DNA of 37,975 bases from Patescibacteria group bacterium (GTDB lineage Bacteria > Patescibacteriota > Minisyncoccia > Minisyncoccales > MHMH01): contig JBBTYF010000040.1 in NCBI GenBank assembly GCA_038061935.1, positions 1 through 37,975 of the forward strand, given 5' to 3'. Position numbers and translations under genes: made by a program. Below are positions 10,239 to 36,373 of the stretch, in pieces. Position 1 is the first letter of the stretch, and each line of letters starts with the position of its first letter. Under the pieces are notes generated by a model. The model had not been told where the DNA came from. It was given only the letters and a program-made list of their open reading frames with translations, and made no database searches.

Positions 10239-10305
10239 ATTTTTCAATTTAACATAAAAAACCGGCGTTTTCAAGCCGATTTTTACTCGTTTAAAATCTC
10301 TGTTT
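10239..10305 (-). promoter_or_regulatory. mtnP-leuS spacer with a weak hairpin plus T-tract and a TAAATT box 7 nt from the leuS ATG
   Basis: The minus strand reads AATCGGCTTGAAAACGCCGGTTTTTTATGTTAAATTGAAAAAT-ATG. The string TAAATTGAAAA also sits directly before the smpB ATG. Confidence 0.3.
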
Positions 10306-12119: not shown

Positions 12120-12123
12120 AATT

Positions 12124-13837: not shown

Positions 13838-13839
13838 AA

Positions 13840-15300
13840 TTATTTGAAACGAGGAAAAAGCGGTTCGCTCTTTTTATTCTTTAATTGCTTAAGTATCTTC
13901 TCCGAAGTTTCTGGCATAAACGGCTCCAAAAACTTGGCTATTTCTTCAATTAAAAACAACAAGCTGCTGATTATATCTTTCTGTTTGTCGCTTTTCTCCC
14001 ATAGCTTATTTTTTTCTACCTCCTGATCGCAAAATTTAATCAATAACCAGATCGCTGCCAGAGCCATAGAAAACTCAAACCTCTCCAGTGATTCTTTATA
14101 TTTTTCTTTCGAATCTTGTAAAGCAATTTTATATTCGGCGATCAGGCTTTTTTCGTTCCCGATCTTTTTTGTTTTCGTAACCTGGGCCAATTTTTCTACC
14201 CGGGCAACCAGATTGCCCAACCCACTTGCCAGATCACCATTGTATCTTTCTTTGAATTTCTCTTCAGAAAAATCACCATCTTCAGTGGCAGGAATCTCCC
14301 GCAGGAGAAAGTACCTCACAGCGTCAACGCCGTATTTCTTTACCAATTCAAAAGGATCAACCACATTGCCTAGGCTCTTGGACATCTTTTGTCCACCAGA
14401 ATTAATAAAACCGTGAACGAATATCTTTTTGGGCAAGGATAGTTTTAAAGATAAGAGTATTCCTAACCAAATTATCGCATGAAATTTTAAAATATCCTTA
14501 CCAACACAATGCACGCTAGCTGGCCAATATTTTTTGGGATAAAGATAATTTACTAAAGCGTCCGCCCAAACATAAATTGTCTGAGAATCATCGCCTGGCA
14601 CAGGTATCCCCCACCCCAGTTTTTCTTTAGGTCTAGAAAAACTTATATCTCGTAATTTACCGTCACGGCCTGTCCACTGCTCAATCATTTTCAAAATTTC
14701 GTTCTTCCTTTCTTTCGGAATAATTTCTACTTCGTTGTTTTCAATAGCGTTTTTAATGTTATTTGTATATTTAGAAAGTTTAAAAAAATAGTTTTTTTCT
14801 TTTACACACTCTCCGACTTGATTATGAGTTAAACATTTAGGAGTTCCGGCGAAATTCGCTGGAGACATCACCTTTACGTCATTTTTATCAAAAATAAAAG
14901 CTTCGCAACCAGAACAATACCAGCCTTCGTAGTCCCCAAACTCTATATCTTTTTGCCTTTCTAACCCCTGCCAAACCTCCCTTACGCCTGGCCAATGCCT
15001 TTTTTGGTCAGTAGTTCGGATAAAATCGTTATTAGACAAATGAAGAATTTTCGTTAAATTCTCGAACTTCCCAGAAATTTCGTCGGTAAAATCTTTGGGT
15101 GTTTTACCGGCGGCCTGAGCGGCTTTAACGATCTTTGCGCCGTGCTCGTCGGTGCCGGTCAGGAAAAAAACATCGTCACCCGATTGCCGGCGATAGCGCG
15201 CCACAACATCGGCCTGAACCAACTCTAAAGCATACCCGATATGAGGCGGGGCGTTGGTGTAAGCGATGCTAGTTGTGATATAAAATTTCGGCTTAGACAT
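13840..15300 (-). CDS. metG: Methionyl-tRNA synthetase (short form)
   Basis: The N-terminus YITTSIAYTNAPPHIGY carries a HIGH-position motif that here reads HIGY. KMSKSLGN is present, and there are Cys knuckles (CSGCE...). Confidence 0.93.
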   Translation of the reverse strand: MSKPKFYITTSIAYTNAPPHIGYALELVQADVVARYRRQSGDDVFFLTGTDEHGAKIVKAAQAAGKTPKDFTDEISGKFENLTKILHLSNNDFIRTTDQKRHWPGVREVWQGLERQKDIEFGDYEGWYCSGCEAFIFDKNDVKVMSPANFAGTPKCLTHNQVGECVKEKNYFFKLSKYTNNIKNAIENNEVEIIPKERKNEILKMIEQWTGRDGKLRDISFSRPKEKLGWGIPVPGDDSQTIYVWADALVNYLYPKKYWPASVHCVGKDILKFHAIIWLGILLSLKLSLPKKIFVHGFINSGGQKMSKSLGNVVDPFELVKKYGVDAVRYFLLREIPATEDGDFSEEKFKERYNGDLASGLGNLVARVEKLAQVTKTKKIGNEKSLIAEYKIALQDSKEKYKESLERFEFSMALAAIWLLIKFCDQEVEKNKLWEKSDKQKDIISSLLFLIEEIAKFLEPFMPETSEKILKQLKNKKSEPLFPRFK

Positions 15301-15344
15301 GCTATAGTGAGTCTATGCTCAATATATCGGGCACATTACCCGCT
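15301..15344 (-). promoter_or_regulatory. Conserved upstream element, copy B (in front of metG)
   Basis: The minus strand reads TTATAG-CGGGTAATGTGCCCG-ATATATTGAGCAT-AGAC-TCACTAT-AGC-ATG. It shares a 17/18-nt block and a small hairpin with 21724-21760. TTATAG-16-TATATT resembles a sigma70 promoter. Confidence 0.45.
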
Positions 15345-15388
15345 ATAATTATAATTAGTTTATCTTATCATATTTTTATTAAAATTAA

Positions 15389-15856
15389 ATGATTTTAACT
15401 CCTCACATCTTGGTGGGCGTAGCCATCGCAACCAAAGTCCAAAATCCGATTTTAGGACTTGTTTTTGTTTTATTAAGCCATTATTTCTTAGATCTTTTCC
15501 CGCACAATGAATATTCGATTAAGAACATCCGAGGCGGACGATGGTCAGTGTCCCTGCCGGATTTTTTAAAAGCGTTTTTAGATATTGCCTTAGCCCTGGT
15601 GATTATTTCTTTTACGGCGGGCTTCTCCCCGATGATCATAACTGCTGTTGCCGTGTCGATTCTTCCCGACGGCCTCACCTTGCTCCAGTGCATCTTCCCT
15701 GAAAATAAATTACTAATAAAACATTTAAAAATACATTGGGCGATCAACGACGTCAGCGAAAATAAAAAAATCCCCGATGTTATGGGGATTATCAGCCAAG
15801 TTCTTGTTGCGGCCATAGCTATTTATCTCCTACTACAACCACGAACTCTCCTCTAA
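15389..15856 (+). CDS. Small membrane protein, possibly YdjM/DUF457-like
   Basis: 155 aa with 4-5 TM segments. The N-terminus MILTPHILVG and SHYFLDLFPH resemble the His/Asp motifs of DUF457. It is the only plus-strand ORF in this stretch, and its 3' end overlaps rsmI convergently. Confidence 0.4.
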   Translation: MILTPHILVGVAIATKVQNPILGLVFVLLSHYFLDLFPHNEYSIKNIRGGRWSVSLPDFLKAFLDIALALVIISFTAGFSPMIITAVAVSILPDGLTLLQCIFPENKLLIKHLKIHWAINDVSENKKIPDVMGIISQVLVAAIAIYLLLQPRTLL

Positions 15857-16490
15857 TTTCGTCTTTCGCTAATCCAGCTAAAATATCTTTGGCTGAACCC
15901 CGATAAATCGTTTCGAATTTCTTGGTCAACTCGCGGCAAACTACAATTTTTCTCTCCGTCAATAAAGCAATCTCCTCGAGAGTTTTTATAATGCGGTAAG
16001 GCGATTCGTAGAGTATCGTCGGATACTTCGAACTAATCGCTTCTTCAAAAAACTTTTTTCTCTTTTTCTTGACGGGCGGAAAACCTAAAAACACAAATTT
16101 ATCCATCGGGAATCCGGAAATGGACGCAGCGGCGGTCAGGGCTGACGGACCGGGAATCGGTATGGTTGTTAATTGTCCAATTGTCCAATTGTTCAATTGT
16201 TCAATTAAGCGGTTCCCCGGATCGGATATCCCGGGCGTTCCTGCGTCAGAAACCAAAGCAAGGTTTTTTCCATTACTAAGAAGCTGGATAATCTCTTCAA
16301 TCTTTTTAATTTCGGTGTGCTGATGATAGCTCGTGGTTTTGGTTTTAATTTCGTAACGAGTAAGGAGTTTTTGAGTTATCCTCGTATCTTCACACAAAAT
16401 TAAATCAACCTCCGATAATATTCGGAGGGCGCGCTTAGAAAGATCTTCTAAATTCCCGATAGGGGTAGCGACGATATAAAGAATACCCAT
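15819..16490 (-). CDS. rsmI: 16S rRNA (cytidine1402-2'-O)-methyltransferase
   Basis: GILYIVATPIGNLEDLS...LCEDTR, DAGTPGISDPG and IPGPSA motifs. Confidence 0.9.
   Translation of the reverse strand: MGILYIVATPIGNLEDLSKRALRILSEVDLILCEDTRITQKLLTRYEIKTKTTSYHQHTEIKKIEEIIQLLSNGKNLALVSDAGTPGISDPGNRLIEQLNNWTIGQLTTIPIPGPSALTAAASISGFPMDKFVFLGFPPVKKKRKKFFEEAISSKYPTILYESPYRIIKTLEEIALLTERKIVVCRELTKKFETIYRGSAKDILAGLAKDEIRGEFVVVVGDK
16170..16209 (-). repeat. Five tandem 8-nt units inside rsmI
   Basis: The plus strand reads TAATTGTC CAATTGTC CAATTGTT CAATTGTT CAATTAAG, with each unit built around the palindrome CAATTG. It encodes LIEQLNNWTIGQL. Confidence 0.85.
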
Positions 16491-16495
16491 TTATA

Positions 16496-17533
16496 TTACA
16501 AAACAACGGCTTGTTCTTTCTCTTCTTTCCGCTTTTTCAAAAAATCGCGGAGGAATTCAAAAAGAATTCCAGCGAGAGGAATAGCCAAGAGCGCTCCCAT
16601 CAAGCCCCATAATTTTGCTCCTATCATCAACGAAACCAGCACCAAAACGGGCGGCAATCCGACGAATTTCTTCGTTAAAACCGGGCTCAAAATATTGCCT
16701 TCAATTTGCTGAATAATAATAAAGGTGATAACAAAAAACACGGCCTTAGTCCAAGAAGTCGCCGCCACCAAGATGGCGACAGCCACTGCGACAATAACCG
16801 GACCAATAATAGGAATCGCATTTAGAAAGCCGGACAAAAGCCCGAAAGAAACAGCGTATTTGATATTTAAGGCGTAGCATGTCACATAGGTCGTAACGCC
16901 GACAAATAGACAGCATAAAATCCTTGAACCAAACCAGCCGCTTACTTTTTTCTGAGACCTTGCCCAGTGACTCAAGGCGAATGCCTCATATTTTTTAGGA
17001 ACCAGGCTGCCGATTACCCTATCTAAACCCTTTTCTTCTAGAGAAAGAAAAAGAGCAATGGTAAAAATGGTCACGGCTGACATAATTCCTCCAAAAATTG
17101 CACCCACAGCGCTAAAAATATTAGACGAAGCCTTGATTAGTTCCTGTTCGAAAATTTTAGTGAAAGCGTCGATATTTTTAAAAGCTTCGATGCCTAATCC
17201 CCGAAGCGGTGTTGATAGTTTATCAAAATATTCCGGGAAGAATTGAGAAAACTGCTGAATTTCCGCCACAAAGATAGGAGCAATGGAATAAACAAGAAAA
17301 CCGATGGTGATAAAAAGAGACACATAAATCAAAACAGTGGCCAATACCCTGGGGAAGCGCTTCTTCTGTAAAAAATCGACGGCCGGATTGAATAAAACCG
17401 AAATAATCAGGCCGAAAATCACCCAAATTAAAATATCTCTTATTAAGTAAATAAGATAAAAGGTCAAAAAGGCTACAGCCATTTTTAAGATCGTTTCCCA
17501 GGAAATATCGAGTACCCTCGATTGATTCGTCAT
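16496..17533 (-). CDS. AI-2E/PerM-family transporter (UPF0118)
   Basis: 345 aa with about 8 TM segments. The C-terminal region IEGNILSPVL...GLPPVLVL is typical of the family. Confidence 0.8.
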   Translation of the reverse strand: MTNQSRVLDISWETILKMAVAFLTFYLIYLIRDILIWVIFGLIISVLFNPAVDFLQKKRFPRVLATVLIYVSLFITIGFLVYSIAPIFVAEIQQFSQFFPEYFDKLSTPLRGLGIEAFKNIDAFTKIFEQELIKASSNIFSAVGAIFGGIMSAVTIFTIALFLSLEEKGLDRVIGSLVPKKYEAFALSHWARSQKKVSGWFGSRILCCLFVGVTTYVTCYALNIKYAVSFGLLSGFLNAIPIIGPVIVAVAVAILVAATSWTKAVFFVITFIIIQQIEGNILSPVLTKKFVGLPPVLVLVSLMIGAKLWGLMGALLAIPLAGILFEFLRDFLKKRKEEKEQAVVL

Positions 17534-17535
17534 AA

Positions 17536-18801
17536 TTATAACTTTAATATTTTCTCGAAAAGACTTTTGTCTTTGAACGGTCCCACCAGGGCTAAGTTGA
17601 GGTTTTTGGGCTGAAAAACGTCCCGAGCGACCTTCAAAATGTCTTGAAGGGAGACTTGATCAATTTTAGCATATATTTCCTTTGGTGTTAAAATCTTTTT
17701 TTCTGAAAGCTCCTGCATCCCGTAAAAAAGAGACAAATCATCCGAACCTTCCAAAACAAGGGCCGTCTTCCCCTTGATGTAATCTTTGGCCTTTTTCAAT
17801 TCTCCGGCGGTTATTTTCTCTTGTGAAATTTTCCGATATTCCTTCAGAATAGTGGCAACGGCTTTCTCCACGTTCTTGTTATCCACGCCGGCTCGGGTCG
17901 CTAAAAATCCCGTGTCAGAGTCGGCCTCAGAGTCAGTTTTTATATAATACGCCAGCCCTAATTTCTCCCTGACTTCAATGAAAAGCCGGGAGCTCATCAT
18001 GCCGCCTAAAATTACGCTTAAAACCTCCTGCGCATATTTCTGGGGATGAAAAATATTATACCCCCTCACGCCCAAGCAAAGGTGAGTCTGATCGGTTTCT
18101 TTAAAATGGACTAGCAATTCCGGCCGCGTTTGTCTTTCGACAACCTTTTCTTTCCCTCCGGGTTTCATGTTTTTTATTCCGGCAAAACTCTTTTTTACTT
18201 CATTAATAGCCCGCGCTTCCTTTATATTACCCGCGACGCAAACAACAGTATTTTGAGCAACATACTGACTCGCCATGTATTTCGCCAATTTCTCGCGGTC
18301 CATTCGGCTCACGGTCTCTTTGGTGCCGGCAATGTCCCAACCGGCCGGCTGATCGCCATAAAGCAGTTTTGACCATAAGGTGGAGACATAAGCCATCGGG
18401 TTGTCATAGATCATATTAATTTCCTCGGTGATCACGCCTTTTTCCTTGGCGATTTCCTGCGCAGGCAGAAGACTATTAAGGTAAATGTCCGAAACCCAGT
18501 CTAAAGCCAAATCGAAGTTAGTGGCCGCCACTTTGGCGAAATATCCCGTGCACTCTTCTCCGGTAAAGGCGTTATAAATACCTCCAACCTTATCCAAAGT
18601 TTCGGCAATCGTTATTTTATCCGGCTTTTTCTTGGTACCCTTAAAAAACATGTGCTCCAGAAAATGCGAGATGCCACTGACTTCTTTTGTTTCGTATTTG
18701 GAACCCGTGCCCACTAATGCCAAAACCGTCACGGCCTGCGTGCTTTTCTGCGGGACGGTAATAATCCTTAGTCCGTTTTTTAGAGTGGTTTTTTTAAACA
18801 T
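17536..18801 (-). CDS. M16-family (pitrilysin/insulinase-like) zinc peptidase
   Basis: Inverted zinc motif HFLEH followed by ...FKGT. The two-domain length of 421 aa fits the family. Confidence 0.85.
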   Translation of the reverse strand: MFKKTTLKNGLRIITVPQKSTQAVTVLALVGTGSKYETKEVSGISHFLEHMFFKGTKKKPDKITIAETLDKVGGIYNAFTGEECTGYFAKVAATNFDLALDWVSDIYLNSLLPAQEIAKEKGVITEEINMIYDNPMAYVSTLWSKLLYGDQPAGWDIAGTKETVSRMDREKLAKYMASQYVAQNTVVCVAGNIKEARAINEVKKSFAGIKNMKPGGKEKVVERQTRPELLVHFKETDQTHLCLGVRGYNIFHPQKYAQEVLSVILGGMMSSRLFIEVREKLGLAYYIKTDSEADSDTGFLATRAGVDNKNVEKAVATILKEYRKISQEKITAGELKKAKDYIKGKTALVLEGSDDLSLFYGMQELSEKKILTPKEIYAKIDQVSLQDILKVARDVFQPKNLNLALVGPFKDKSLFEKILKL

Positions 18802-20083
18802 TTAAACATTCAGTTAATTTGTCTATTTTTACTCTTTCTTGTTTTGCAGTGTCGCGATTGCGGATAGTGACATCTCCCTTCTCCAAACTATCGAAATCTA
18901 CCGTAATGCAGGCCGGCGTGCCAATTTCGTCTTGCGCGAAATAGCGCTTGCCGATATTCCCCCTGTCATCCCAGGCCACCATCATATCTTTGCGCAAATC
19001 ATCGTAAATTTTCCTGGCTAACTTCACGAGTTCGGGCTTGTTCTTCAAAAGTGGAAACACAGCGGCTTTATATGGAGCCAACTTCGACGGAAGTTTCAAG
19101 ACCACTCTTTCGCCGTCTTCATAATAGGCGTCCAAAAGCGTAGCCAAAACCGAACGGTCCAAGCCGAAAGTCGGTTCAATGACGTGCGGTAAAAATTCCT
19201 CGCCCGTTTCCGGATCGCGGTATTTGAGATTTTGCCCTGAATTCTTTTCGTGATTCTTTAAATCAAAATTGGCGCGATAAGCCAAACCGTAAAGTTCTTT
19301 CTGCCCAAAAGGATAATCGTATTCAAAATCAACGGTTCTCTTTGAATAATGCGCGCGATCTTCTTTTGGAATTTCTATTTCGTGCACTTTTTTCGGGTCG
19401 ATACCCAAGTCTTTCGTTATCCATTCCTTCATTTCCTTCTGCCAATACTCGAACCATTTTTCCCACTCTTTTTCTTCCACGAAATATTCTAATTCCATTA
19501 GGTCGAATTCACGGGTGCGGAAAGTAAAATTGCCCGGCGTAATTTCGTTACGGAAAACCCTGCCTTGCGAAGCAATACCGAAAGGCAGGCGTCTTCTCGT
19601 CGTATCCAGCACCTGTTTGAAATTAACGAACATCGCCTGAGCAATTTCAGGACGAAGATAAACGGTGTTCGCCTGTTCCTCAGCCGGGCCAAGGAAAGTT
19701 TTTAACATCAAGTTAAATTGCTTGGCTTCCGTGAATTGTTTTTTAGCTCCGCATTTCGCACACTGCGCATTAATATCAATACTGTCGGCACGGAAGCGAG
19801 TATGGCATTTTTTACATTCCACTAAAGGGTCGGAAAAGGTAGCCAAATGCCCGCTTGCCTCCCAAACTTTAGGATTCATAATCAAAGAAGCATCTAGACC
19901 GACCATGTCGTCGCGGCTTTGAACGAATCTTTTCCACCAGAGCTGTTTAATGTTATTTTTAAGCTCTATACCTAAGGGACCGTAGTCCCAAGAATTCGCC
20001 AAGCCGCCGTAAATTTCCGAGCCGGGGAAAACAAAACCCCTTCTTTTGGCTAGCGATGTGATTTTTTGCATTAAGTCTTCCAT
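18794..20083 (-). CDS. glyQS: Glycyl-tRNA synthetase (single-chain GlyQS type)
   Basis: The N-terminus LAKRRGFVFPGSEIYGG, class II motifs (FRNEITP, GLDR) and a Cys cluster insertion. Confidence 0.93.
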   Translation of the reverse strand: MEDLMQKITSLAKRRGFVFPGSEIYGGLANSWDYGPLGIELKNNIKQLWWKRFVQSRDDMVGLDASLIMNPKVWEASGHLATFSDPLVECKKCHTRFRADSIDINAQCAKCGAKKQFTEAKQFNLMLKTFLGPAEEQANTVYLRPEIAQAMFVNFKQVLDTTRRRLPFGIASQGRVFRNEITPGNFTFRTREFDLMELEYFVEEKEWEKWFEYWQKEMKEWITKDLGIDPKKVHEIEIPKEDRAHYSKRTVDFEYDYPFGQKELYGLAYRANFDLKNHEKNSGQNLKYRDPETGEEFLPHVIEPTFGLDRSVLATLLDAYYEDGERVVLKLPSKLAPYKAAVFPLLKNKPELVKLARKIYDDLRKDMMVAWDDRGNIGKRYFAQDEIGTPACITVDFDSLEKGDVTIRNRDTAKQERVKIDKLTECLNV

Positions 20084-20088
20084 GGTTT

Positions 20089-21723
20089 TTATTGAGTAAT
20101 ATCGCCCGTATTAATCGCTGGAGTTTCCCCGTTTGCCACTAAACCCGTGAATTCATCTTCGCCTGTAATCTTGGCCGTTCCGACAAGATTGGAATTACCT
20201 CCATATTGAGGATTTAGAGTAATTTGGAACGCAACCGAAGGGGCCTGATCTAAAACGCCTCGGCCGGCCGCCATATCATCCAGCTCCCAAACAACCTCGC
20301 GAGAATTAGAATCAAACGTTAATCTTGAGTCTGTTGGGAAAATACGTCCGGTCAATCTTACACTATTATCAAGAGTTGCCTTAACTCTGACCCCCTTAAC
20401 ATTGTTATAATAATTTTTTGCCTGCCAAATAATCGTGTAAGTAGTCTGCTGACTGGCTTGCGGAGGATTGGGGCCAGAATTACCGAATACTTCATCCGCA
20501 TAGTAGCCTTTCTGAATTATCGCGAGCTTGGAATTAACGTTAGTGGTAAACTCTTTCTGAGCCTGGCCGAGGAATACATTGTCTTTCAAGGTCGGATTTT
20601 TCTGATCGGCATTAGCGATAGCCCAATCATCTTTCAAATCAATCCAGAATTCAACTCTGCCCTCTTCTTGAGCATCCAAAAATTGAAGCTTGGGACTCTT
20701 ACGCCAATCGAAAATAATAGAATTATCACCCGACTGAAAATCACCCAAAGGCGCTTTAATGGTTTGAAAGTCAAATAAGTTACCTTCCAGTTTAACTACT
20801 AGGAACTGATTGCTGAAAGCGTCGTTGCCGATATTTTTGAAAAAAATCTCGTAATGCAGGGTGTCGCCTGCTCTCCCCACATATTGTGAGCTATTATTAA
20901 TCTGCTGGGATATATATAAAGAAGGCGTCACGATCTGCACCGCCCTGATCGTTTCTTTTAAGACGACGAACTCGCCGTCAATCCAGGTGCCCAGTTGCGC
21001 CTTGAATTGTTTTTGTTCGCCAACCTGGCCGCTTAAATTACCGGCGATCTTAATCCTGCCGCCCTCTGCTTTATTTAAAAGGCCGACGTCCCAATCTGTT
21101 TTTTCCAAGGATTTGGGTTTCGAACTTTGGAATTCGAAATCGGACGGATACTCAACTTTAATGCCTAAATTAGCCAACGGATAATCGACGTTGGAAAAAT
21201 AGTTTAATTGAAAATCGATTTCTTTGCCCGCATCAATTTTTGAGGGGAGGTCAAACTCCAACGTCAAAGGAACCGAATTAACTCTGGCGTTATGGGAAGT
21301 TTGCGATTCGTAGCGAGCCTTAAGGTTTTTAGGCTGATAATTCAGCCAAGCTTGGGCCTTTTTTATATCCCCCTCCTTCCCAAGAAGCCTCGTCTTGAAA
21401 CTAAAGGTCTGCTCTTGGCCCGGATAGATGCTTTCCAGAGTAATTTCTTTTCTTAACGACTCTTCTTCGCCAACAAGCGAATAAGCCGGGTACTCAAAAG
21501 TCAGTCTCGGGTCTTCCAGCCTGATATTGCCGTTATTTTTATACCTAACGGTATATTCAATTTCTTGCCCCAGGGCCACCTCCCCTGGAGCTAAAATTTC
21601 CAATTTTAAAATTTCCTTAGAATAGCTATTCTTTTGCCAAGACCAAAAACCAATAAGTCCCGCGACCACGACTAAACCGATGGCAACAAGAATAAACTTA
21701 TTTTTGGAGTATTCTAATTTCAT
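20089..21723 (-). CDS. N-terminally anchored surface protein with four CARDB/DUF11-like beta-sandwich repeats
   Basis: I prefer the ATG at 21723 (MKLEYSKNKFILVAIGLVVV, one TM). A pattern recurs four times: G-x-E/T-I/L-x-Y-x-I/V-x-Y/F-x-N-x-G-N (GQEIEYTVRYKNNGN, GKEIDFQLNYFSN, GDTLHYEIFFKNIGN, TTYTIIWQAKNYYN). Confidence 0.6.
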   Translation of the reverse strand: MKLEYSKNKFILVAIGLVVVAGLIGFWSWQKNSYSKEILKLEILAPGEVALGQEIEYTVRYKNNGNIRLEDPRLTFEYPAYSLVGEEESLRKEITLESIYPGQEQTFSFKTRLLGKEGDIKKAQAWLNYQPKNLKARYESQTSHNARVNSVPLTLEFDLPSKIDAGKEIDFQLNYFSNVDYPLANLGIKVEYPSDFEFQSSKPKSLEKTDWDVGLLNKAEGGRIKIAGNLSGQVGEQKQFKAQLGTWIDGEFVVLKETIRAVQIVTPSLYISQQINNSSQYVGRAGDTLHYEIFFKNIGNDAFSNQFLVVKLEGNLFDFQTIKAPLGDFQSGDNSIIFDWRKSPKLQFLDAQEEGRVEFWIDLKDDWAIANADQKNPTLKDNVFLGQAQKEFTTNVNSKLAIIQKGYYADEVFGNSGPNPPQASQQTTYTIIWQAKNYYNNVKGVRVKATLDNSVRLTGRIFPTDSRLTFDSNSREVVWELDDMAAGRGVLDQAPSVAFQITLNPQYGGNSNLVGTAKITGEDEFTGLVANGETPAINTGDITQ

Positions 21724-21760
21724 AGTGAACAGAATGTTCAATATATCGGGCTAATGCCCG
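21724..21760 (-). promoter_or_regulatory. Conserved upstream element, copy A (between the recO stop and the surface-protein start)
   Basis: The minus strand reads TAA-CGGGCATTAGCCCG-ATATATTGAACAT-TCTGT-TCACT-ATG. Plus strand 21734-21751 matches 15315-15332 at 17/18 positions. Confidence 0.45.
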
Positions 21761-22393
21761 TTATACGATTATTTTTTCAGTATACCACTCGCTGACGATT
21801 TTTAATAATTTCTGGTGGGAGGGAGTAATTTTCAACCTCGAAAGCATTGACCAGTCTTTTCTCAAAATTACTTTGATGATTTTGACGACGTCGCAGTCTA
21901 TTCTGGTTTTATTAATATTACAATCGTGGAATTCCGGCTTATAACCAAGAATAGAAACGAAATTCCAAAAAAAATAATAATACACCAGTGGCGGGTAGTT
22001 AATTTTAAATTGAGGGTTGTTTAATTTATTAAAGATTTCGCTCAGCAACCGCCAAATCTCATCATCTTTCTCTTCTTTTGAAACAAAATTATCTAAAGCT
22101 TCTATGACTTGATGAATAATTTTAAACCTTCTGAGGTTTTTTTTAATAACGGAGAAATTTTCGATCGGGATAGCGTCGGTTAGAGTTTTGTGAGTCTTGC
22201 CCTGAATAAACTCGATTTCGCTTAGGCAAAAGATTTCGGCTCCACCTTTTAATTTTGACCCGATTTTCCTGATAGCCCTGCCTAAAACCTTAAGTTTACC
22301 GAAATTCTTGGTGTAAATCGTAAATAACCGGCTATCTTCTCCCCGATCGATTTTCTTAATAAAAAAGCCTTGAGTTCTATAATGAACAGCCAT
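21761..22393 (-). CDS. recO: DNA repair protein RecO
   Basis: N-terminal OB-fold pattern (TQGFFIKKIDRGEDSRLFTIYTKNFGKLKVLGRA...) and a length of 210 aa. Confidence 0.75.
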   Translation of the reverse strand: MAVHYRTQGFFIKKIDRGEDSRLFTIYTKNFGKLKVLGRAIRKIGSKLKGGAEIFCLSEIEFIQGKTHKTLTDAIPIENFSVIKKNLRRFKIIHQVIEALDNFVSKEEKDDEIWRLLSEIFNKLNNPQFKINYPPLVYYYFFWNFVSILGYKPEFHDCNINKTRIDCDVVKIIKVILRKDWSMLSRLKITPSHQKLLKIVSEWYTEKIIV

Positions 22394-22408
22394 TATCGTT
22401 TAATATTT

Positions 22409-25400
22409 TTACCTTTCCAAATATAGACATAATTTTTGCTGATCAATTGTTATTTCGCTTGAGGCAATAAACTTTTGAGGAACGACCGCTGTCGATTCAA
22501 AAACCTCTGCTTTGGTTTCTAATAAAATCGCTTTTTTATTTTTAGCTAAAACATCGGCCAGTTCTGAAAAACAGGAATACCAAACCGAAATTTTATCCTG
22601 AGGCTTGAGTCCGGATTTTTTCCTCATATCTTGAATCTGGCGGATAATGTCTCTAACCATACCTTCTTCTTTAAGCTCGGCGGTAATTTCCGTATTTAAC
22701 TTCAGGTCTTTACCAAAACTGATTTTTTTAACATTGATTTCTTCTTTAATCAATTCCAACAACTCTTCGCTGATTTTATCCGTAATCTGCAAGTCTTGAA
22801 GCGGCTGGCGAACTTTAATGCCTGCTTTCGCCCTCTCAGACAAGGCTAGGGTTACAATTTCCCTAACTTTTTCCATTTCCTGTTCCAGCTTCTTATTAAT
22901 TAATTTATTATTCTCCTTCGGCCAATCCGCCAAGTGCACAGATGAAAGAGGTTCGGCCTCTTTCATTTTTCCGTAAATCTCTTCACTTAAAAACGGCACA
23001 AAGGGAGCAGTTAATTTGCTTAAAGTTAATAAGACGTGGGATAAGGTCGGCGCGGCCCCTTCAAAGCGTTTCCTTGACCTTCTGATATACCATAAAGACA
23101 AGTCGTTGACCGTAAAATCTTCAATAGCTCTGGCCGCCGCGGTTATGTCGTACTTATCTAGTTTCTGAGTGGTTTCCCGTATCAATCCGTTCAGTCTGGA
23201 GATAATCCACTTATCTAAGATATTTTTTCCCGCCCGAGGCGGGTCCGCTTTGGGCGGAGAGTTTTGGTAGGTCTGGTAGAAAGTGAAACAATTCCAATAA
23301 ATCATAAGAAACTTTCTCAAGGACTCTCCTAATTCTTTTTCGGAGAACATTTTTACTTCGCCCGGCTGATTGACCGTGTAAAAATACCAGCGGGCGGCGT
23401 CGGCGCCGTATTTCTCGAAAATATCCCAAGGGTTGACCACATTGCCCTTGGATTTGGACATCTTTTCTCCCTTTTCGTCTAAAACATGGCCCAAAGAGAC
23501 AACGTTTTTGTAGGGAATGCCTAAATCCAGAAGAGTGGCTATGGCCAAAAGCGTGTAAAACCAACCTCGCGTCTGATCAATAGCTTCGGAAATATAATCA
23601 GCCGGAAATTGAATCTTTTTACTATCGAAAGGATAGTGGGATTGGGCAAAAGGCATAGAACCCGAATCAAACCAAACATCGATTAAATCGGGCACTCTTT
23701 GCATCACACCTTCGCATTGTGGACACTTAAACTTGGCCCCGTCGATATACGGCCGATGAAAATCCAGCTCCATTTTTTCATTTTTAGGCAATGCATTAAA
23801 TTTAATCTCTCGCCATTCTCCGGTTTTAATTCTAGCTTCTTTGTTTTCTTTTCTACCAGCTAAAATATTTTCCAAGGCGATCCCCTTAAGACTTCCTTCA
23901 AGAATAGAAATGGGCAACTCGTGGGAAACAATCAAAATATTTTTATTCTGGTACTCTTTATCTGTCGCCTCTAAAAAGCCCGCCATTCTTTTCTGAACGT
24001 CCAGTAAGCTTTCTCCTTCCGGTATCTGAGCTTCGATGGGATTTTTCTCTTGATCCAGATGTTCCCAAATCAACTTGGGATTTCCACCGTTAAAAATACC
24101 GACATTTAATTCCCTGATTCTTTCTTCAAAAATTATTTTAGCTCCGGTTTCTTGAACGACGATCTCGGCCGTTTGTTTTGTCCTTAATACATCGGAAGAT
24201 ATAATAAAATCGATATTTTTATTTTTAAGCAGGCGGGCTGTTTTTAAAACCTCTGCTTCGCCTTTTTTAGTTAAGGGATTGTGGACTTTCTCCGGCCAGC
24301 AGCTAGCTAAGTTCTTAGTGTTCATCGGGGCTTCGCCGTGTCTCATGATAAAATATTTATTGTTTGTGAACTTTTGATTCAATAAATCTTCCTTGCTGCC
24401 AATGACTTCTTGATGACGGCATTTTTTACATTGCCAAACCGGCAAGGGCGTGCCCCAATAACGTTCTCGAGAAAAAGCCCAGTCTTTGACTTCCTTCAGC
24501 CATTCGCCGAATCTGCCTTCTTTCAAATGAGCCGGCACCCAATTGATTTTCTCGTTATTCTTAATTAAAGAGTTTTTGACCTTCTGCATATTGATAAACC
24601 AACTCTCTTTGGCGTAATAAAGAAGCGCCGAACCGCACCTCCAGCAGAACGGGTAGTCGTGTTCGTATAATTCTTCTTTAAAAAGTAAACCTCTCTCCTG
24701 TAAATTTTTGATAATCAACGGATCAGCGTCTTTAACAAACATTCCTGCCCAATCGGCTACTTCTTTTTTGAATTTTCCCTCTTCGTCAACGTTTAAAATT
24801 ACGGGCAAGTTGTTTTCTTTACCAACTTGCATATCGTCCTCCCCAAAAGCCGGAGCAATATGGACTAAACCCGTCCCGTCTTCAAGAGAAACGAAATCGG
24901 CCGCGATTACGCGAGGTTCGACCTCCTTGGGAGGTCGAACCTCCCCAAATAGCGATCTGTATTTTATACCCACCAGCTTCTCTCCTTTAAATTCTCTTTC
25001 AGCCACTCCTTGTAAACCAAGGCTATCTAGCCTATCTTTTGATAAAACCAGAAACTCGTCATTAAATTTTACTTTAACATAAGTAATTTTTGGATTTACT
25101 GCGATCGCCACATTAGCTGGAAGTGTCCACGGAGTAGTCGTCCATACTAAGAAATAACTATTTGCCCAAAGTGAATCTGGGCGAGCTGAATCTACGTGTT
25201 TTATTTTAAATTTCACATACACCGAATTGTCCTTAACACTCTTATATCCTTGGGCTACTTCGTGAGAAGACAAACCGGTTCCGCATCTTGGGCAATAAGG
25301 CACAACCTTGTAATCTTCATATAAAAGTCCTTTCTGATAAATCTGCTTTATCGCCCACCAAACGCTTTCAATATAATTATTCTCATAAGTAATGTAAGGA

Positions 25401-25819
25401 TGTTCCATGTCTAGCCAGAAACCGATCCGCTCCGTCAACTTTTCCCACTCATCCTTATATTGCCAGACAGATTCTTTGCATTTCTTATTAAACTCGGCGA
25501 TGCCGAATTTTTCGATGTCTTTTTTATTTTTCAGGCCCAGCTTTTTTTCTACTTCAAGTTCAACCGGCAATCCATGAGTATCCCAGCCCGCTTTTCGCAA
25601 AACGCGAAAACCCCGCATAGTTTTATAGCGGCAAATAATATCCTTATAGGTTCTGGCCAAAACATGGTGAATGCCCGGCTTGCCGTTGGCTGTCGGCGGC
25701 CCTTCGTAAAAAACAAAATCTTTCGCTTTTTTACGATTTAAAATACTTTTCTCGAAAGTCTTATTTTTCTTCCAATCTTCGAGGATTTTTTTCTCTAAGT
25801 TCGGGAAAATTGTCTCCAT
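22409..25819 (-). CDS. ileS: Isoleucyl-tRNA synthetase (type 2) carrying an internal histidine-phosphatase domain
   Basis: PPTANGKPGIHHVLAR (HIGH region), KMSKSKGN and a CP1 editing domain (TTTPWTLPAN). About 200 extra residues (aa ~485-683) lie between the CKKC and CPQC halves of the zinc knuckle. This insert contains RHG...R...E...H phosphatase motifs. Confidence 0.95.
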   Translation of the reverse strand: METIFPNLEKKILEDWKKNKTFEKSILNRKKAKDFVFYEGPPTANGKPGIHHVLARTYKDIICRYKTMRGFRVLRKAGWDTHGLPVELEVEKKLGLKNKKDIEKFGIAEFNKKCKESVWQYKDEWEKLTERIGFWLDMEHPYITYENNYIESVWWAIKQIYQKGLLYEDYKVVPYCPRCGTGLSSHEVAQGYKSVKDNSVYVKFKIKHVDSARPDSLWANSYFLVWTTTPWTLPANVAIAVNPKITYVKVKFNDEFLVLSKDRLDSLGLQGVAEREFKGEKLVGIKYRSLFGEVRPPKEVEPRVIAADFVSLEDGTGLVHIAPAFGEDDMQVGKENNLPVILNVDEEGKFKKEVADWAGMFVKDADPLIIKNLQERGLLFKEELYEHDYPFCWRCGSALLYYAKESWFINMQKVKNSLIKNNEKINWVPAHLKEGRFGEWLKEVKDWAFSRERYWGTPLPVWQCKKCRHQEVIGSKEDLLNQKFTNNKYFIMRHGEAPMNTKNLASCWPEKVHNPLTKKGEAEVLKTARLLKNKNIDFIISSDVLRTKQTAEIVVQETGAKIIFEERIRELNVGIFNGGNPKLIWEHLDQEKNPIEAQIPEGESLLDVQKRMAGFLEATDKEYQNKNILIVSHELPISILEGSLKGIALENILAGRKENKEARIKTGEWREIKFNALPKNEKMELDFHRPYIDGAKFKCPQCEGVMQRVPDLIDVWFDSGSMPFAQSHYPFDSKKIQFPADYISEAIDQTRGWFYTLLAIATLLDLGIPYKNVVSLGHVLDEKGEKMSKSKGNVVNPWDIFEKYGADAARWYFYTVNQPGEVKMFSEKELGESLRKFLMIYWNCFTFYQTYQNSPPKADPPRAGKNILDKWIISRLNGLIRETTQKLDKYDITAAARAIEDFTVNDLSLWYIRRSRKRFEGAAPTLSHVLLTLSKLTAPFVPFLSEEIYGKMKEAEPLSSVHLADWPKENNKLINKKLEQEMEKVREIVTLALSERAKAGIKVRQPLQDLQITDKISEELLELIKEEINVKKISFGKDLKLNTEITAELKEEGMVRDIIRQIQDMRKKSGLKPQDKISVWYSCFSELADVLAKNKKAILLETKAEVFESTAVVPQKFIASSEITIDQQKLCLYLER
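22943..22969 (-). repeat. 27-nt hairpin module, copy 1 (in frame in ileS)
   Basis: TGAAAGAGGTTCGGCCTCTTTCATTTT is identical to 26100-26126. Here it forms a 10-bp stem (22942-22951 / 22957-22966). It encodes KMKEAEPLS. Confidence 0.9.
24913..24943 (-). repeat. 31-nt perfect palindrome in frame in ileS
   Basis: GAGGTTCGACCTCC-TTG-GGAGGTCGAACCTC is a 14-bp perfect stem with a 3-nt loop. Each arm is itself a small palindrome, GAGGT-TCG-ACCTC. It encodes EVRPPKEVEP. Confidence 0.9.
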
Positions 25820-25823
25820 AATT

Positions 25824-27347
25824 CTACATTTTCTCCGGAGCAGAGATGCCCATTAAAGATAATGTATTCTTTAAAACTATTTTCGTAGCCAAAACCAAGC
25901 TTAAACGGGCTTGAGTCAAATTTTTGTCTTCAGAAATCACCCGGCAATCTCTATAGAATTGGTGGAAAACCGTGGCCAGATCAACCGCATATTGTGGTAG
26001 CCGCTGAATTTGAAAATCTTGAGCGGTATCTTCGACGATCTCCGGCAATCTCATTAATCGCCTGATAAGCTTTAACTCCATCGGATGCTCCAGTAAATTT
26101 GAAAGAGGTTCGGCCTCTTTCATTTTGGCTTTGCGTAAAATACTGCAAATGCGAGCATGAGCGTATTGAATATAATAAACGGGGTTGTTTTCCGACTGTT
26201 CCTTAGCTAAAGCTAAATCGAAGTTTAAATGGGTATCAGGGCTTTTTGTCAAAAAGAAGAAGCGAACGACATCCAAGCCAACCTCGTCAATTAATTCATC
26301 CAACGTAACGTAGGTGCCCGTTCTTTTAGACATCCTGATCTCTTTTCCCTCACGGATTAATCTGACCAACTGCATGACGATAATATCGATCTGTTTTTTA
26401 TCATAACCCAGGGCCTCCGCCGCAGCTAAAATTCTCGCTACATAGCCGTAATGATCAGCGCCCCAAAAGAAAATCAGTTTTTTAAAACCTCGAGTAAACT
26501 TATTTTTGAGATAAGCGACATCGGAAGCCAAGTACGTCTCCTCTCCTCCGGCTTTAACCAGAACCCTGTCCTTATCATCGCCGAACTGGGTGGATTTGAA
26601 CCATAAGGCTCCTTCTGATTCGTAAGACAGGTTTTCCTTTTTTAAAATATCTAAGACCGCGGCTACTTCTTTTTTTTGATACAGTATTTTTTCGGAAAAC
26701 CAGATATCAAACTTAATTTTCATTTTCAAAACCTGAGGCTTAATCATTTCCTGAAGAACGATTTTCGCGGCGGATTCGCCGACTTTTTCCGGATCACTGC
26801 CTTTTATTGTTTTCTTTAATTCTTCGATATATTGACCCCGGTAAACAGCCTCTGAGTCGCCGATGACCGAGTGTCCTAATTTTTTAACTTGCTCGCCCGT
26901 ATCATTAATATAATACTCGCGCTTTGCCTCAAAGCCGGCTTTATTTAAAACATTGGCCAGAACATCGCCGCAAAACCCGCCACGGCCGTTGCCCAGAGTT
27001 AAAGGGCCGGTGGGATTAGCAGAAATAAATTCCACATTTACTTTTTGGCCGCGGCCAATCCTGAGTTTACCGAAGGATTCTTTTTGCTTTAAAATCACGT
27101 CGACTTGTTTTTGCAGATATTCCTTGGATAAAAAAAAGTTAATGAAACCCGGGCCGGCCGCCTCGATTTTTTCAAATAAGTCTGCCCGTAAACGCCCGAC
27201 TATTTCATTAGCCGGTTTTTTGAGCCGTAAGGCGATATTCGTTGTGTAATCGCCGAAGCCCTCCCCTTCGGGGTAAGTTACCTTAATTTCGTCTTCGGAA
27301 GCGGAGGTCGCCTTTTGGATTAGTTTAATTATTTCTTGCCTTATCAT
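25824..27347 (-). CDS. argS: Arginyl-tRNA synthetase
   Basis: SANPTGPL, MSKRTG, YIQYAHARICSILRKA and the C-terminal anticodon-binding domain ending ...EKM. The HIGH position reads TLGN. Confidence 0.93.
   Translation of the reverse strand: MIRQEIIKLIQKATSASEDEIKVTYPEGEGFGDYTTNIALRLKKPANEIVGRLRADLFEKIEAAGPGFINFFLSKEYLQKQVDVILKQKESFGKLRIGRGQKVNVEFISANPTGPLTLGNGRGGFCGDVLANVLNKAGFEAKREYYINDTGEQVKKLGHSVIGDSEAVYRGQYIEELKKTIKGSDPEKVGESAAKIVLQEMIKPQVLKMKIKFDIWFSEKILYQKKEVAAVLDILKKENLSYESEGALWFKSTQFGDDKDRVLVKAGGEETYLASDVAYLKNKFTRGFKKLIFFWGADHYGYVARILAAAEALGYDKKQIDIIVMQLVRLIREGKEIRMSKRTGTYVTLDELIDEVGLDVVRFFFLTKSPDTHLNFDLALAKEQSENNPVYYIQYAHARICSILRKAKMKEAEPLSNLLEHPMELKLIRRLMRLPEIVEDTAQDFQIQRLPQYAVDLATVFHQFYRDCRVISEDKNLTQARLSLVLATKIVLKNTLSLMGISAPEKM
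26100..26126 (-). repeat. 27-nt hairpin module, copy 2 (in frame in argS)
   Basis: Identical to 22943-22969, with a 9-bp stem (26100-26108 / 26114-26122). It also encodes KMKEAEPLS. Confidence 0.9.
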
Positions 27348-27688
27348 TATAAAAACTTAACGAATTTATTGTTTTCATCTACGAGAACATTTTTGCATTC
27401 AACCGGCTTATCGGCTAATTCAAAACCCATAATGACGATTTTTTCACCGCGTTTGATTAAAAGAGCCGCTGCTCCGTTGGTGCAAACTTCTCCAGAATCA
27501 TTTTGACCGGCGATGACATAGGTTTCAAGCCTGACGCCCGAAGATAGGCTCGCCACTAATACTTTTTCTCCGTTTAAAAAACCCGCTTTTCCTAAAAGAG
27601 AGTGATCAACGGTAATGCTGCCAGCATAATCTGGTTTAGCTTCGGTCACGGTTGCTCTGTGGATTTTTGATCTTAAAAACCATCTCAT
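27347..27688 (-). CDS. panD: Aspartate 1-decarboxylase proenzyme
   Basis: LRSKIHRATVTEAKPDYAGSITVD contains the Gly-Ser self-cleavage site. The length is 113 aa. Confidence 0.88.
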   Translation of the reverse strand: MRWFLRSKIHRATVTEAKPDYAGSITVDHSLLGKAGFLNGEKVLVASLSSGVRLETYVIAGQNDSGEVCTNGAAALLIKRGEKIVIMGFELADKPVECKNVLVDENNKFVKFL

Positions 27689-27746: not shown

Positions 27747-28193
27747 ATGGAGGAAATAAAAAACAAAAGGGCCTCTTTCGACTACGAATTCTTGGAGAAC
27801 TTCGAGGCAGGCATGGTGCTTTCAGGAAATGAGGTAAAATCAATAAACTCAGGACACATGTCACTCGTCGGCTCTTATGTTGTTTTAAAGGGCGGCGAGG
27901 TTTGGCTGATTAACGCCAATGTCGCGCCCTACCAGCCTAAAAACACGCCCAAAGACTATGCCCCTACCCGATCAAGGAAACTCCTTTTAAAAAAGAAAGA
28001 AATCCAATATCTCTTTGGCAAATCCCAGGAAAGAGGCTTGACTTTAATACCATTGAGGGTATATAGTAATAAGGGTAAAATAAAGATAGAGTTCGCCGTA
28101 GCCCGAGGAAAGAAAAAAGCTGATAAGAAAGAATTGATCAAAAAAAGGGAAACCAGGAAGGAAGTTGAGAGAGAGTTAAAAATGCGGGGGTGA
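27747..28193 (+). CDS. smpB: SsrA-binding protein
   Basis: NKRASFDYEF, SGNEVKS, YQPKNT...R.RKLLL and a basic C-terminal tail. tmRNA is immediately adjacent. Confidence 0.93.
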   Translation: MEEIKNKRASFDYEFLENFEAGMVLSGNEVKSINSGHMSLVGSYVVLKGGEVWLINANVAPYQPKNTPKDYAPTRSRKLLLKKKEIQYLFGKSQERGLTLIPLRVYSNKGKIKIEFAVARGKKKADKKELIKKRETRKEVERELKMRG

Positions 28194-28541
28194 CAGGCTT
28201 CGACAGAGATCTTTTTTCAAAATCGGCAAATCCAGTATTCTGGAATCTGGCTAAACTTCCGGAAACCGAGATATGGCAACATATTTCAAAAACCTGTCCT
28301 CGCCTACGCTTAGTAAGCGGGACCATCCAACCTTAACTATTCTCGATAATAAGGATTGGGTGTCATAATCTCGAGATAGGCAGAATCGCTTCCGCTTCGA
28401 GCGGTTCTCCGAAAAGTTAGAAGCTAGAAATATCGGAATTTTGCCTGTTTTACATCCGATGTTTCGAAAATTAAAACAGACTAAATTTGTAGAGAGATTT
28501 TGATAATATTTCTGGACGGGACTTCAATGTCCCCACCTCCA
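28186..28541 (+). ncRNA. ssrA: tmRNA (transfer-messenger RNA)
   Basis: The 5' end GGGGGUGACAGGCUUCGACAG is canonical. The 3' end is GGACGGGACUUCAAUGUCCC-CACCUCC-A. Acceptor strand GGGGGUG pairs with CACCUCC and includes a G3:U alanine-identity pair. The likely tag ORF is GGC AAC ATA TTT CAA AAA CCT GTC CTC GCC TAC GCT TAG TAA (28275-28316), giving GNIFQKPVLAYA with a double stop in a small hairpin. CCA is not encoded: ACAC follows the stem. Confidence 0.88.
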
Positions 28542-28545
28542 CACC

Positions 28546-29058
28546 TTGAACACAAGAATAATCGCCAATACGCAAATAAGGGCTAAAGAAGTCAGAGTTA
28601 TCGATGAAACTGGAAAACAGCTGGGTGTTATGGGTTTGGAACAGGCTCTGCGCTTAGCTTATGAACACAACCTGGATTTAATCCAGGTGACCGAAAAGGT
28701 TGACCCGCCGGTTTGTAAGATCATGGATTACGGCAAGTACTCTTACCAGGCAAAAAAGAAAGAACAATCGGCCTCAAAGAAACAAAAAATCAGCGAGCTT
28801 AAAGGAATCAGACTGACCTTCAATATCGGTCAGCACGACATGGAAACCAGGGCCCATCAGGCGGAAAAATTCCTGAAAGAGGGCGATAAGGTGAGAATCG
28901 ATATTGTTTTAAGGGGCAGAGAAAAGGCCATGAGTGACTTTGCTAGAGAAAAAATCGGTAAGTTTCTGGAAGTATTACAAGGATTCATCCCCTATAAAAT
29001 TGAAAGGGAGTTAAAAAAAGAGATGAGGGGTTTTTCAATGATTATATCCAAACAATGA
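28546..29058 (+). CDS. infC: Translation initiation factor IF-3
   Basis: IRAKEVRVIDETGKQLGVM, LDLIQV...PPVCKIMDYGKY and a C-terminal domain. There is no ATG. The track start is the TTG at 28546, and ATA/ATC codons at 28558-28563 are alternatives. No SD is visible. Confidence 0.88.
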   Translation: MNTRIIANTQIRAKEVRVIDETGKQLGVMGLEQALRLAYEHNLDLIQVTEKVDPPVCKIMDYGKYSYQAKKKEQSASKKQKISELKGIRLTFNIGQHDMETRAHQAEKFLKEGDKVRIDIVLRGREKAMSDFAREKIGKFLEVLQGFIPYKIERELKKEMRGFSMIISKQ

Positions 29059-36240: not shown

Positions 36241-36260
36241 ATTTCTCCTTATTTCTCCTT
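36241..36260 (-). repeat. Exact tandem duplication of a 10-nt SD-containing unit
   Basis: The plus strand reads ATTTCTCCTT twice. The minus strand reads AAGGAGAAAT-AAGGAGAAAT-ATG. Confidence 0.85.
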
Positions 36261-36373
36261 TTTGTTCATTTTTTGTTACCGGGCTACCGAATTTTACCAT
36301 TAATCAATCAGTTTCAAGTCACTAAAATACCTCCTTCTCGCTCTCTAAATTTTTCTTTTTTCAATTAGAAAAG

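Follow-up and report, generated by a model that had tools for sequence, protein, structure and literature searches.

A histidine phosphatase domain nested in the zinc knuckle of isoleucyl-tRNA synthetase in Patescibacteria

A histidine phosphatase domain inside ileS

We analyzed a stretch of 37,975 nucleotides (nt) from an uncultivated and ultra-small Patescibacteria group bacterium (contig JBBTYF010000040.1 of assembly GCA_038061935.1), hereafter called the window. At 22409..25819 (-) it carries ileS, a single uninterrupted open reading frame (ORF) of 1136 amino acids (aa), which encodes a type-2 isoleucyl-tRNA synthetase (IleRS) with a phosphatase nested in it. When aa 485-683 were searched alone against Pfam, PF00300 (His_Phos_1) was matched over profile positions 2-168 of 194, with an E-value of 1.1e-32 and 113.7 bits (cutoff 21.7). 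The PF00300 match, an AlphaFold2 (AF2) model, Foldseek, and the alignment with free-standing proteins placed the domain proper at aa 488-676 (23792..24358 (-)). These limits are our best estimate and lie slightly within 23771..24367, which corresponds to aa 485-683.

The domain is located in the third connective peptide (CP3) of the synthetase, where a zinc-binding motif is known in Thermus thermophilus (Tt) IleRS (PMC7191050). The first Cys pair of the CP3 zinc knuckle, C464-K-K-C467 (24419..24430 (-)), aligns with Tt C461/C464, and the second, C699-P-Q-C702 (23714..23725 (-)), with Tt C502/C504. Both pairs were invariant among 50 insert-bearing homologues, the set used for all statements on 50 homologues below. 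The spacing between the pairs is 231 residues in the window protein (C467 to C699) versus 37 in Tt IleRS (C464 to C502). In the alignment with the Tt structure 1ILE, aa 3-479 correspond to Tt residues 8-476 and aa 684-1001 to Tt residues 487-821, indicating that about 204 residues stand in place of about 10. The window IleRS has about 190 extra residues that form an autonomous enzyme domain in CP3, where Tt IleRS has a connection of about 10 residues.

The RHG motif of the domain is composed of R493, H494, the predicted phospho-acceptor nucleophile, and G495 (24335..24343 (-)). The phosphate pocket is predicted to have a second arginine, R546 (24182..24184 (-)), and a second catalytic histidine, H633 (23921..23923 (-)), and E570 (24110..24112 (-)) is the predicted proton donor. 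In 120 insert-bearing IleS sequences, R493, H494, R546, and H633 were invariant, G495 was kept in 119, and position 570 was E in 91 and D in 29. The R and H of the RHG motif were also invariant among 34 domain sequences that included free-standing ones, and this phosphatase family has a conserved C/S-W-P-E motif of its own after RHG.

The AF2 model of the segment, made with 34 homologues, had a predicted local distance difference test score (pLDDT) of 93.8 and a predicted template modeling score (pTM) of 0.89. Foldseek comparison of this model with the Protein Data Bank gave 293 matches at E <= 0.001, and the top 50 were all histidine phosphatases or mutases. The best match was PspA of Hydrogenobacter, a phosphoserine phosphatase (4IJ6; E 4.9e-14, template modeling score (TM) 0.76, root-mean-square deviation (rmsd) 2.2 Å), and further top matches included CobC (6NRU, TM 0.79), PhoE (1H2E), and a riboflavin-pathway phosphatase (9MMH). 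The modeled insert appears to share the fold of the small branch-1 phosphatases (PhoE/YhfR, 1H2E and 1EBB; PspA, 4IJ5 and 4IJ6; CobC, 6NRU and 6E4B; HFP, 9MMH) at TM 0.70-0.79 and rmsd 2.2-3.0 Å, whereas cofactor-dependent phosphoglycerate mutases (dPGM) superposed on it at 5-6 Å. It is also like the small phosphatases in its size class of about 190-210 aa and in the RHG...R...E...H set, with only 21-26% identity.

Scores against NCBIfam equivalog models were below the cutoff in every case: CobC TIGR03162 (84.8 versus 162.9), GpmB NF002901 (83.4 versus 261), PspA NF045917 (73 versus 350), and SixA TIGR00249 (37.2 versus 74.5). Because every equivalog cutoff was missed, the insert belongs to the superfamily but to no characterized family. 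A true phosphoglycerate mutase was disfavored, since TIGR01258 scored 41.9 versus a cutoff of 81.7 and covered the N-terminal ~85 residues only. The dPGM type was also disfavored by the length of the domain, about 189 aa versus about 230-250 aa with cap and tail, and by the poor superposition. PADLOC-DB gave zero matches at E <= 0.01 for the insert, a free-standing homologue (P0007), and full-length IleS. The sequence and the predicted fold identify the segment as a small branch-1 histidine phosphatase of PhoE/PspA/CobC-like type that is complete, sits at the tip of the CP3 zinc knuckle, and is probably an active phosphomonoesterase.

Two linkers connect the domain with its host. The N-terminal linker LLNQKFTNN (aa 479-487, 24359..24385 (-)) leads from the knuckle to the phosphatase, and the C-terminal linker LPKNEKMELDF (aa 677-687, 23759..23791 (-)), which aligns with Tt 'LPEPFDPHRPY', leads back into CP3. 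Among the 50 homologues, L479, F484, N487, and Y489 on the N side and F674, P678, and D686 on the C side, linkers and domain edges together, were at least 90% conserved. In the AF2 model of full-length IleS (pLDDT 80, pTM 0.68), the knuckle and the insert were the most confident part, with pLDDT 81-96 over both junctions and 89-94 in the N-terminal linker. The conserved linkers and the confidently modeled junctions therefore suggest a rigid mount, not a loose tether.

The insert has no internal stops and its GC content is 0.386 versus 0.412 in the remaining ileS. Inteins are likewise whole folded domains that lie in frame in surface loops of essential enzymes. Unlike inteins, the insert has no HINT fold, splice residues, or homing endonuclease, is kept in the mature protein, and is inherited with the host gene. 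An intein was rejected because the junctions ...QKFTNN/KYFIM... and ...EIKFNA/LPKNE... contain no splice residues and Pfam gave no HINT or endonuclease match.

These results support the initial annotation of this locus, which was made by reading the sequence. It had claimed a complete RHG phosphatase domain in IleS, which the profile search recovered, with R493-H494, R546, E570, and H633 as key residues, all of which are at these positions. The 1ILE alignment of the flanking Cys pairs agreed with the claimed insertion, which splits the CP3 zinc knuckle into two halves, and with the short linker said to be present in other type-2 IleS. The insert was also correctly described as in frame, host-like in composition, and free of intein features, and the predicted structure (Foldseek E ~5e-14) has the phosphatase fold. 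The proposal that the domain is probably active was strengthened by the invariance among homologues, the high-confidence predicted fold, and the ratio of nonsynonymous to synonymous substitution rates (dN/dS) given below. The initial annotation lacked two findings that carry the most information, a separate phosphatase gene directly upstream of ileS in relatives and a parallel insertion in another synthetase, and the substrates that it suggested are speculative.

The host isoleucyl-tRNA synthetase

The protein matched the IleRS model TIGR00392 at 933.3 bits versus a cutoff of 621.4, in two stretches flanking the insert, and contained the Pfam domains tRNA-synt_1, Anticodon_1, and DUF5915. The nearest solved structures were 1ILE and 8C8U-W. 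Apart from the insert, it aligned over its full length with type-2 IleRS (Tt, 1ILE/1JZQ; Priestia megaterium IleRS2, 8C8U-W) at an E-value of 1e-261. The zinc knuckles of the CP core and CP3, the CP1 editing domain, the KMSKS loop, and the C-terminal DUF5915 are common to both, and the GXHH form of the class I signature is as in IleRS2.

This signature, G49-I-H-H52 (25664..25675 (-)), is GXHH and not HXGH, that is, the HIGH signature with positions 1 and 3 exchanged. G49 and H51 were invariant and H52 near-invariant among the 50 homologues. Brkic et al. 2023 (PMC10485003) tied the GXHH variant of IleRS2 to hyper-resistance against mupirocin. The MupA and MupB models (NF000257 and NF000258) gave 850 and 856 bits for IleS, below the cutoff of 1900. 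The KMSKS loop (aa 786-790, 23450..23464 (-)) is intact and K786-S790 were invariant among the 50 homologues. The editing motif of CP1 (TTTPWT, from T227) is intact, the Cys pairs 176/179 and 392/395 of the CP core are present, and both zinc knuckles are intact.

CP3 starts directly after the CP2-CP3 linker KDWAFSRERYWG (aa 445-456, 24452..24487 (-)), which ends 8 residues before C464. Within it, D446, W447, R451, E452, R453, Y454, and W455 were invariant among the 50 homologues. The homologous segment of yeast IleRS, ARDWNVSRNRYWG, is part of the pocket for the tRNA CCA end and reveromycin (PMC7955072). With its own motifs kept and under strong purifying selection, the window IleRS appears to be otherwise intact and functional, and would form Ile-tRNA(Ile).

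Distribution and inheritance of the nested domain

Among the best 120 IleS homologues (60-79% identity, 1103-1231 aa), all 120 carried both PF00133 and PF00300. One of the public proteins, from a Patescibacteria metagenome-assembled genome and labeled 'class I tRNA ligase family protein' (P0121), was exactly the window protein, and the identical protein was found on 6 contigs. Short independent fragments with 40-59% identity (P0001, P0002, P0003, P0008, and P0065) also crossed one or both junctions. We then searched 1.84 billion cluster representatives with a flank-insert-flank query (aa 455-730), and the whole query was matched in one stretch by 110 of the 150 best representatives (clusters at 50% identity). 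In GTDB species representatives, at least 496 stretches encoded a relative of the domain, and the hosts named among the matches were Nealsonbacteria, Paceibacterota, Parcubacteria, Wildermuthbacteria, and Staskawiczbacteria. A large clade of Patescibacteria thus has the nested phosphatase as its standard form of IleS.

Comparison with the nearest relative (L005) gave dN/dS of 0.098 for the insert, 0.063 for the N half of IleS, and 0.078 for the C half; these are rough values with synonymous sites near saturation. Purifying selection on the insert is clearly strong. Trees were made by neighbor-joining only, with bootstrapped Fitch counts. On the tree of the IleS core with 78 taxa, the state of the phosphatase, fused with IleS or encoded separately (see the next section), changed 3-5 times versus about 23 times when labels were shuffled, indicating that the architecture is mostly inherited vertically with a few switches or transfers. 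The tree of the short domain gave 6-10 switches. In the fused loci that were outliers, the insertion site was identical.

One insert-bearing IleS of the Patescibacteria type, with 68% identity over the N half, came from a genome labeled Candidatus Humimicrobiaceae (Actinomycetota, NCBI; locus L032, contig DATKUR010000003.1). This placement is likely caused by mis-binning or mislabeling, and transfer is possible.

A nested insertion of a whole ORF in an essential gene is unusual, and a distant IleRS described below (P0264) contains an in-frame IS200-like transposase domain, so an artifact or a selfish element, i.e., an assembly chimera, an intein, or another mobile insertion, had to be considered. 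A chimera was rejected because 6 contigs encoded the identical protein and both junctions were shared by more than 100 divergent orthologues, which came from independent assemblies. A mobile or decaying insertion was rejected by the dN/dS of about 0.1, the host-like composition, and the way in which the architecture tracks the IleS tree. Together with the rejection of an intein, this explanation is effectively refuted.

Fused and separate forms of the phosphatase

Searching with the insert alone also retrieved free-standing proteins of 187-210 aa with 45-52% identity, and free-standing homologues aligned with the insert at 39-51% identity. They match the insert from their second residue (MKLNNKYY versus QKFTNNKYF) to the last strand. 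Because the free-standing proteins align over their full extent, the insert is equivalent to a whole ORF. Two of the free-standing genes were looked up, and both were directly upstream of an ileS without insert (900-952 aa), between argS and ileS.

We classed 84 loci of the closest domain relatives by tblastn with three parts of the window protein. The phosphatase was found between the IleS halves in 53 loci, 52 of them with a single ORF; in L082 (549-2996), the N half of the insert-bearing ileS was in another frame, which may be a frameshift, a sequencing error, or a pseudogene. In the other class, of 31 loci, the phosphatase had an ORF of its own that directly preceded ileS on the same strand, and about 20 of these 31 upstream genes overlapped the frame of IleS or ended no more than 60 nt before its start. 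In none of the 84 loci was the phosphatase anywhere other than in IleS or upstream of ileS. None of the characterized small branch-1 phosphatases is linked to a synthetase, whereas this family lies in or beside ileS throughout these loci.

We also considered a third conserved partner gene between the phosphatase gene and ileS. It was rejected, as the intervening ORFs of the 9 gapped loci were mutually unrelated.

From these sequence comparisons, the window IleS appears to be the fused form of a two-component pair, of which sister Patescibacteria lineages have the phosphatase as a separate gene of about 190 aa.

Related insertions in ValRS and rare variants

A protein found by eye and by Pfam (P0319) was a fragment of valyl-tRNA synthetase (ValRS) with four His_Phos domains, and the catalytic residues were kept in all four copies. 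Among the best 120 ValRS matches of a search with P0319, 71 had His_Phos, of which 58 were single, 11 double, 1 triple, and 1 quadruple. The hosts named for these ValRS were Gracilibacteria and Peregrinibacteria (proteins P0386-P0504; locus L088 4001-7303). The domain was mostly placed after 'WWGH(R/Q)IPVWYD..HLP' and before 'LxQDEDTLDTWFSS', a site homologous to the CP3 site of IleRS. A phosphatase gene beside valS without insert was found in neither of two loci (L085 and L086), a sample too small to generalize. Beside the phosphatase-bearing ValRS of L088, a class II synthetase (tRNA_anti-codon and tRNA-synt_2, Asp/Asn type) with an appended DUF2000 was encoded at 656-2608, a further case of an added domain in a synthetase of a candidate phylum.

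Rare variants were also found in IleRS. Two proteins of the other type-2 subtype (P0362 and P0364) had two tandem phosphatase domains in CP3. In P0374 the phosphatase was at another site, between 'WFESGSMPYAQ' and 'FPADFIAEG', and P0385 had a second copy in the anticodon-binding domain besides the one in CP3, whose motif is a degenerate RHA. The distant IleRS P0264 combined an in-frame IS200-like Y1 transposase domain, a CP3 phosphatase, and a C-terminal GNAT domain.

The degenerate RHA motif in one of the two P0385 copies would fit a non-catalytic module, i.e., a structural, dimerization, or tRNA-binding appendage in which the chemistry is irrelevant. Many histidine phosphatases are dimeric, and PhoE and PspA are oligomeric. 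In the 120 IleS, the free-standing forms, and the P0319 copies, however, the four phosphate-pocket residues do not vary and the acid is always E or D. Catalysis requires this pattern and a scaffold does not need it, and we consider a purely structural function very unlikely.

Gene neighborhood and other features of the window

The gene order of the window is a DUF11 protein, recO, ileS, argS, a panD-like gene, smpB, tmRNA, and infC, and it is the same in the split loci. Synteny was compared in L002-L004 and over 68 loci. Directly upstream of ileS is argS (25824..27347 (-); Arg_tRNA_synt_N, tRNA-synt_1d, and DALR_1), and the free-standing phosphatase gene of sister lineages lies between these two. 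Directly downstream is a recO-like gene (21761..22393 (-); RecO_N and RecO_C), and in 50 of 61 related loci RecO followed ileS at a distance of no more than 2.5 kb.

The panD-like gene (27347..27688 (-)), coding for an aspartate 1-decarboxylase (PF02261), abuts argS with base 27347 in common. The presence of panD is of note, as the lineage is generally described as lacking most cofactor biosynthesis. A full-length tmRNA gene was found at 28186..28544 (+) (Rfam RF00023, 124 bits), flanked by smpB (27747..28193) and infC (28546..29058); ARAGORN reported zero tRNA or tmRNA genes in the window.

The region 7806..27347 (-) is a one-strand cluster of synthetase genes: leuS (7806..10379), metG (13840..15300), a class II synthetase with an HGTP anticodon domain (18794..20083), ileS, and argS. 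The density of synthetases is unusual, and smpB, infC, and rplT are just beyond the cluster. Two ORFs, 35371..36300 (-) of 309 aa and 36819..37973 (-) of 384 aa, had zero Pfam matches at E <= 1e-5. In the split relatives L002 and L003, a bAvd accessory protein and a reverse transcriptase (RVT_1) were encoded a few kb upstream of argS (2055-3586). This pair is typical of diversity-generating retroelements and was not present in the window.

Possible role of the phosphatase

Whether the phosphatase works together with the synthetase is, in our judgment, an even question, and confidence is much lower for any single substrate. In the split lineages the phosphatase is probably docked on IleRS. As for the chemistry, H494 would attack a terminal phosphomonoester, or a terminal phosphoanhydride, held by R493, R546, and H633, the leaving group would be protonated by E570, and the phospho-histidine intermediate would then be hydrolyzed. 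We propose that the phosphatase may act in cis on phosphorylated species reaching or leaving the synthetic site, because the conserved linkers hold the domain on CP3, which is rooted at the linker lining the CCA-end pocket. The likeliest class of substrate would be of a nucleotide type: a tRNA acceptor end phosphorylated at 2' or 3', or a phospho-nucleotide or pyrophosphate by-product.

A wider and more tentative proposal is that class Ia editing synthetases of Patescibacteria have a new functional accessory in this phosphatase. Tethered or docked by the CCA-end pocket of IleRS, or of ValRS in other classes, it would there dephosphorylate a tRNA-linked or nucleotide substrate in cis. As such an accessory, it might, for example, clear 2'/3'-phosphate or pyrophosphate blocks at tRNA ends or hydrolyze a phosphorylated by-product or inhibitor. 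In either case aminoacylation would gain a repair, quality-control, or regulatory step that is not known from the organisms studied so far. This is possible, and we hold it with considerable reserve.

Several points weigh against coupling. A long distance may separate the CP3 tip from the CCA pocket, and to our knowledge no canonical ligand of IleRS is a phosphomonoester, 5'-phosphates excepted. Most bacterial IleRS work without a phosphatase domain, and LeuS and MetG of the window have no insert. As the copy number varies from 1 to 4 and the sites also vary (P0374, P0385, and P0319), the exact placement is suggested not to be critical, and because unrelated domains such as the IS200-like transposase and GNAT are also present in or on IleRS of the Candidate Phyla Radiation (CPR; P0264), the host IleRS could be simply permissive. 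ArgS was adjacent in 24 of 26 split and 25 of 42 fused loci, and the neighborhood is conserved as a whole. Because the ArgS-IleS-RecO neighborhood is generally conserved, adjacency shows little beyond shared ancestry.

The variable sites and copy numbers, the tolerance of other foreign domains, the synteny that is conserved regardless, and the many IleRS in nature without the domain also speak for the main rival explanation. In this explanation the domain is an ordinary small-molecule phosphatase, PhoE-like and acting, for example, on phosphoglycerate, phosphoserine, or sugar phosphates, which is needed for itself. A neighboring gene of the operon would have been captured into a permissive loop, the free copy lost, and the arrangement locked, with co-expression as the only connection and no part played in aminoacylation. 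The closest structures are generic metabolite phosphatases, and JGI labels the free-standing homologues 'broad specificity phosphatase PhoE' or 'probable phosphoglycerate mutase'. The rival explanation is less readily reconciled with ValRS of other CPR classes, where the same domain type recurs at the CP3 site corresponding to that of IleRS, and with the 84 loci, in which the phosphatase was never away from IleS. The conserved linkers, with junctions confidently modeled as rigid, and the frames of the split form that overlap or nearly abut, which is typical of subunits made in a fixed ratio, also argue against it. We regard a phosphatase that is merely carried by IleRS as a serious possibility, though a doubtful one.

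A built-in protein phosphatase was also considered. Branch-1 histidine phosphatases include protein phosphatases. HipA and HipT phosphorylate GltX and TrpS, and Hip-type kinases switch off class I synthetases at the ATP-binding region. The nested domain could then act like SixA, PGAM5, or Sts, stripping an inhibitory phosphate from IleRS or a partner, and so counter such kinases. The CCA pocket and the second Rossmann half, which bears KMSKS, flank CP3 in sequence, and there is a weak partial match to SixA of 37 bits. This match is, however, below the 74.5-bit cutoff and covers the N-terminal 70 residues only, a kinase gene is absent from the window and from the conserved neighborhood, and PADLOC gave no defense or toxin-associated match. 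Permanent tethering would also render kinase control futile. A protein phosphatase of this kind is therefore distinctly unlikely.

Discussion

In the full-text literature, subscription-only papers not covered, we found no description of an aminoacyl-tRNA synthetase with a nested histidine phosphatase, and a 2026 survey of 96,219 IleRS sequences did not mention phosphatase. The novelty claimed by the initial annotation thus held in part: no published description was found, but the domain is widespread in the clade and precomputed PF00300 matches are already public under generic names. The architecture is undescribed and not unseen, because the sequences are abundant and already have precomputed Pfam matches. 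What is new is the combination of an ordinary type-2 IleRS with an ordinary-looking small phosphatase, together with the genomic pattern.

Related combinations are known. The RNase H / acid phosphatase of the Mycobacterium tuberculosis Rv2228c type (NF005567), in which a CobC-like phosphatase is fused to a nucleic-acid enzyme, is a precedent. In NF005567, however, the fusion is end-to-end and the partner is RNase HI, and the insert, scoring 73.7 bits versus a cutoff of 326, is not a member. An IleRS with an extra enzyme is already an annotation category in NF040702 (IleRS with an N-acetyltransferase domain), but its added domain is GNAT, and the window protein scored 338 versus a cutoff of 1999. 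The phosphatase-bearing IleRS has no curated NCBI model and is mostly labeled 'class I tRNA ligase family protein'.

Such generic labels, i.e., class I tRNA ligase for the synthetase and PhoE or phosphoglycerate mutase for the phosphatase, may mislead the metabolic reconstruction of candidate-phyla genomes. If the phosphatase is only a passenger, this family would still be a clean natural case of a whole enzyme inserted into a zinc knuckle of an essential protein, and its fused and split states would be of use to protein engineering and to studies of how domains are inserted.

Few enzymes have been studied as well as aminoacyl-tRNA synthetases, and extra domains in them usually mark extra functions such as editing, tRNA binding, or signaling. 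The apparently active catalytic center of another enzyme class that is nested in IleRS, and in ValRS of other lineages, is kept in hundreds of species of a poorly understood radiation and also has a split version of two genes. Taken together, these findings point to an unrecognized removal of phosphate tied to tRNA charging. If this activity is coupled to aminoacylation, it would be a new accessory activity of class I synthetases. Such coupling would also offer a way into the physiology of the uncultivated, host-dependent Patescibacteria.

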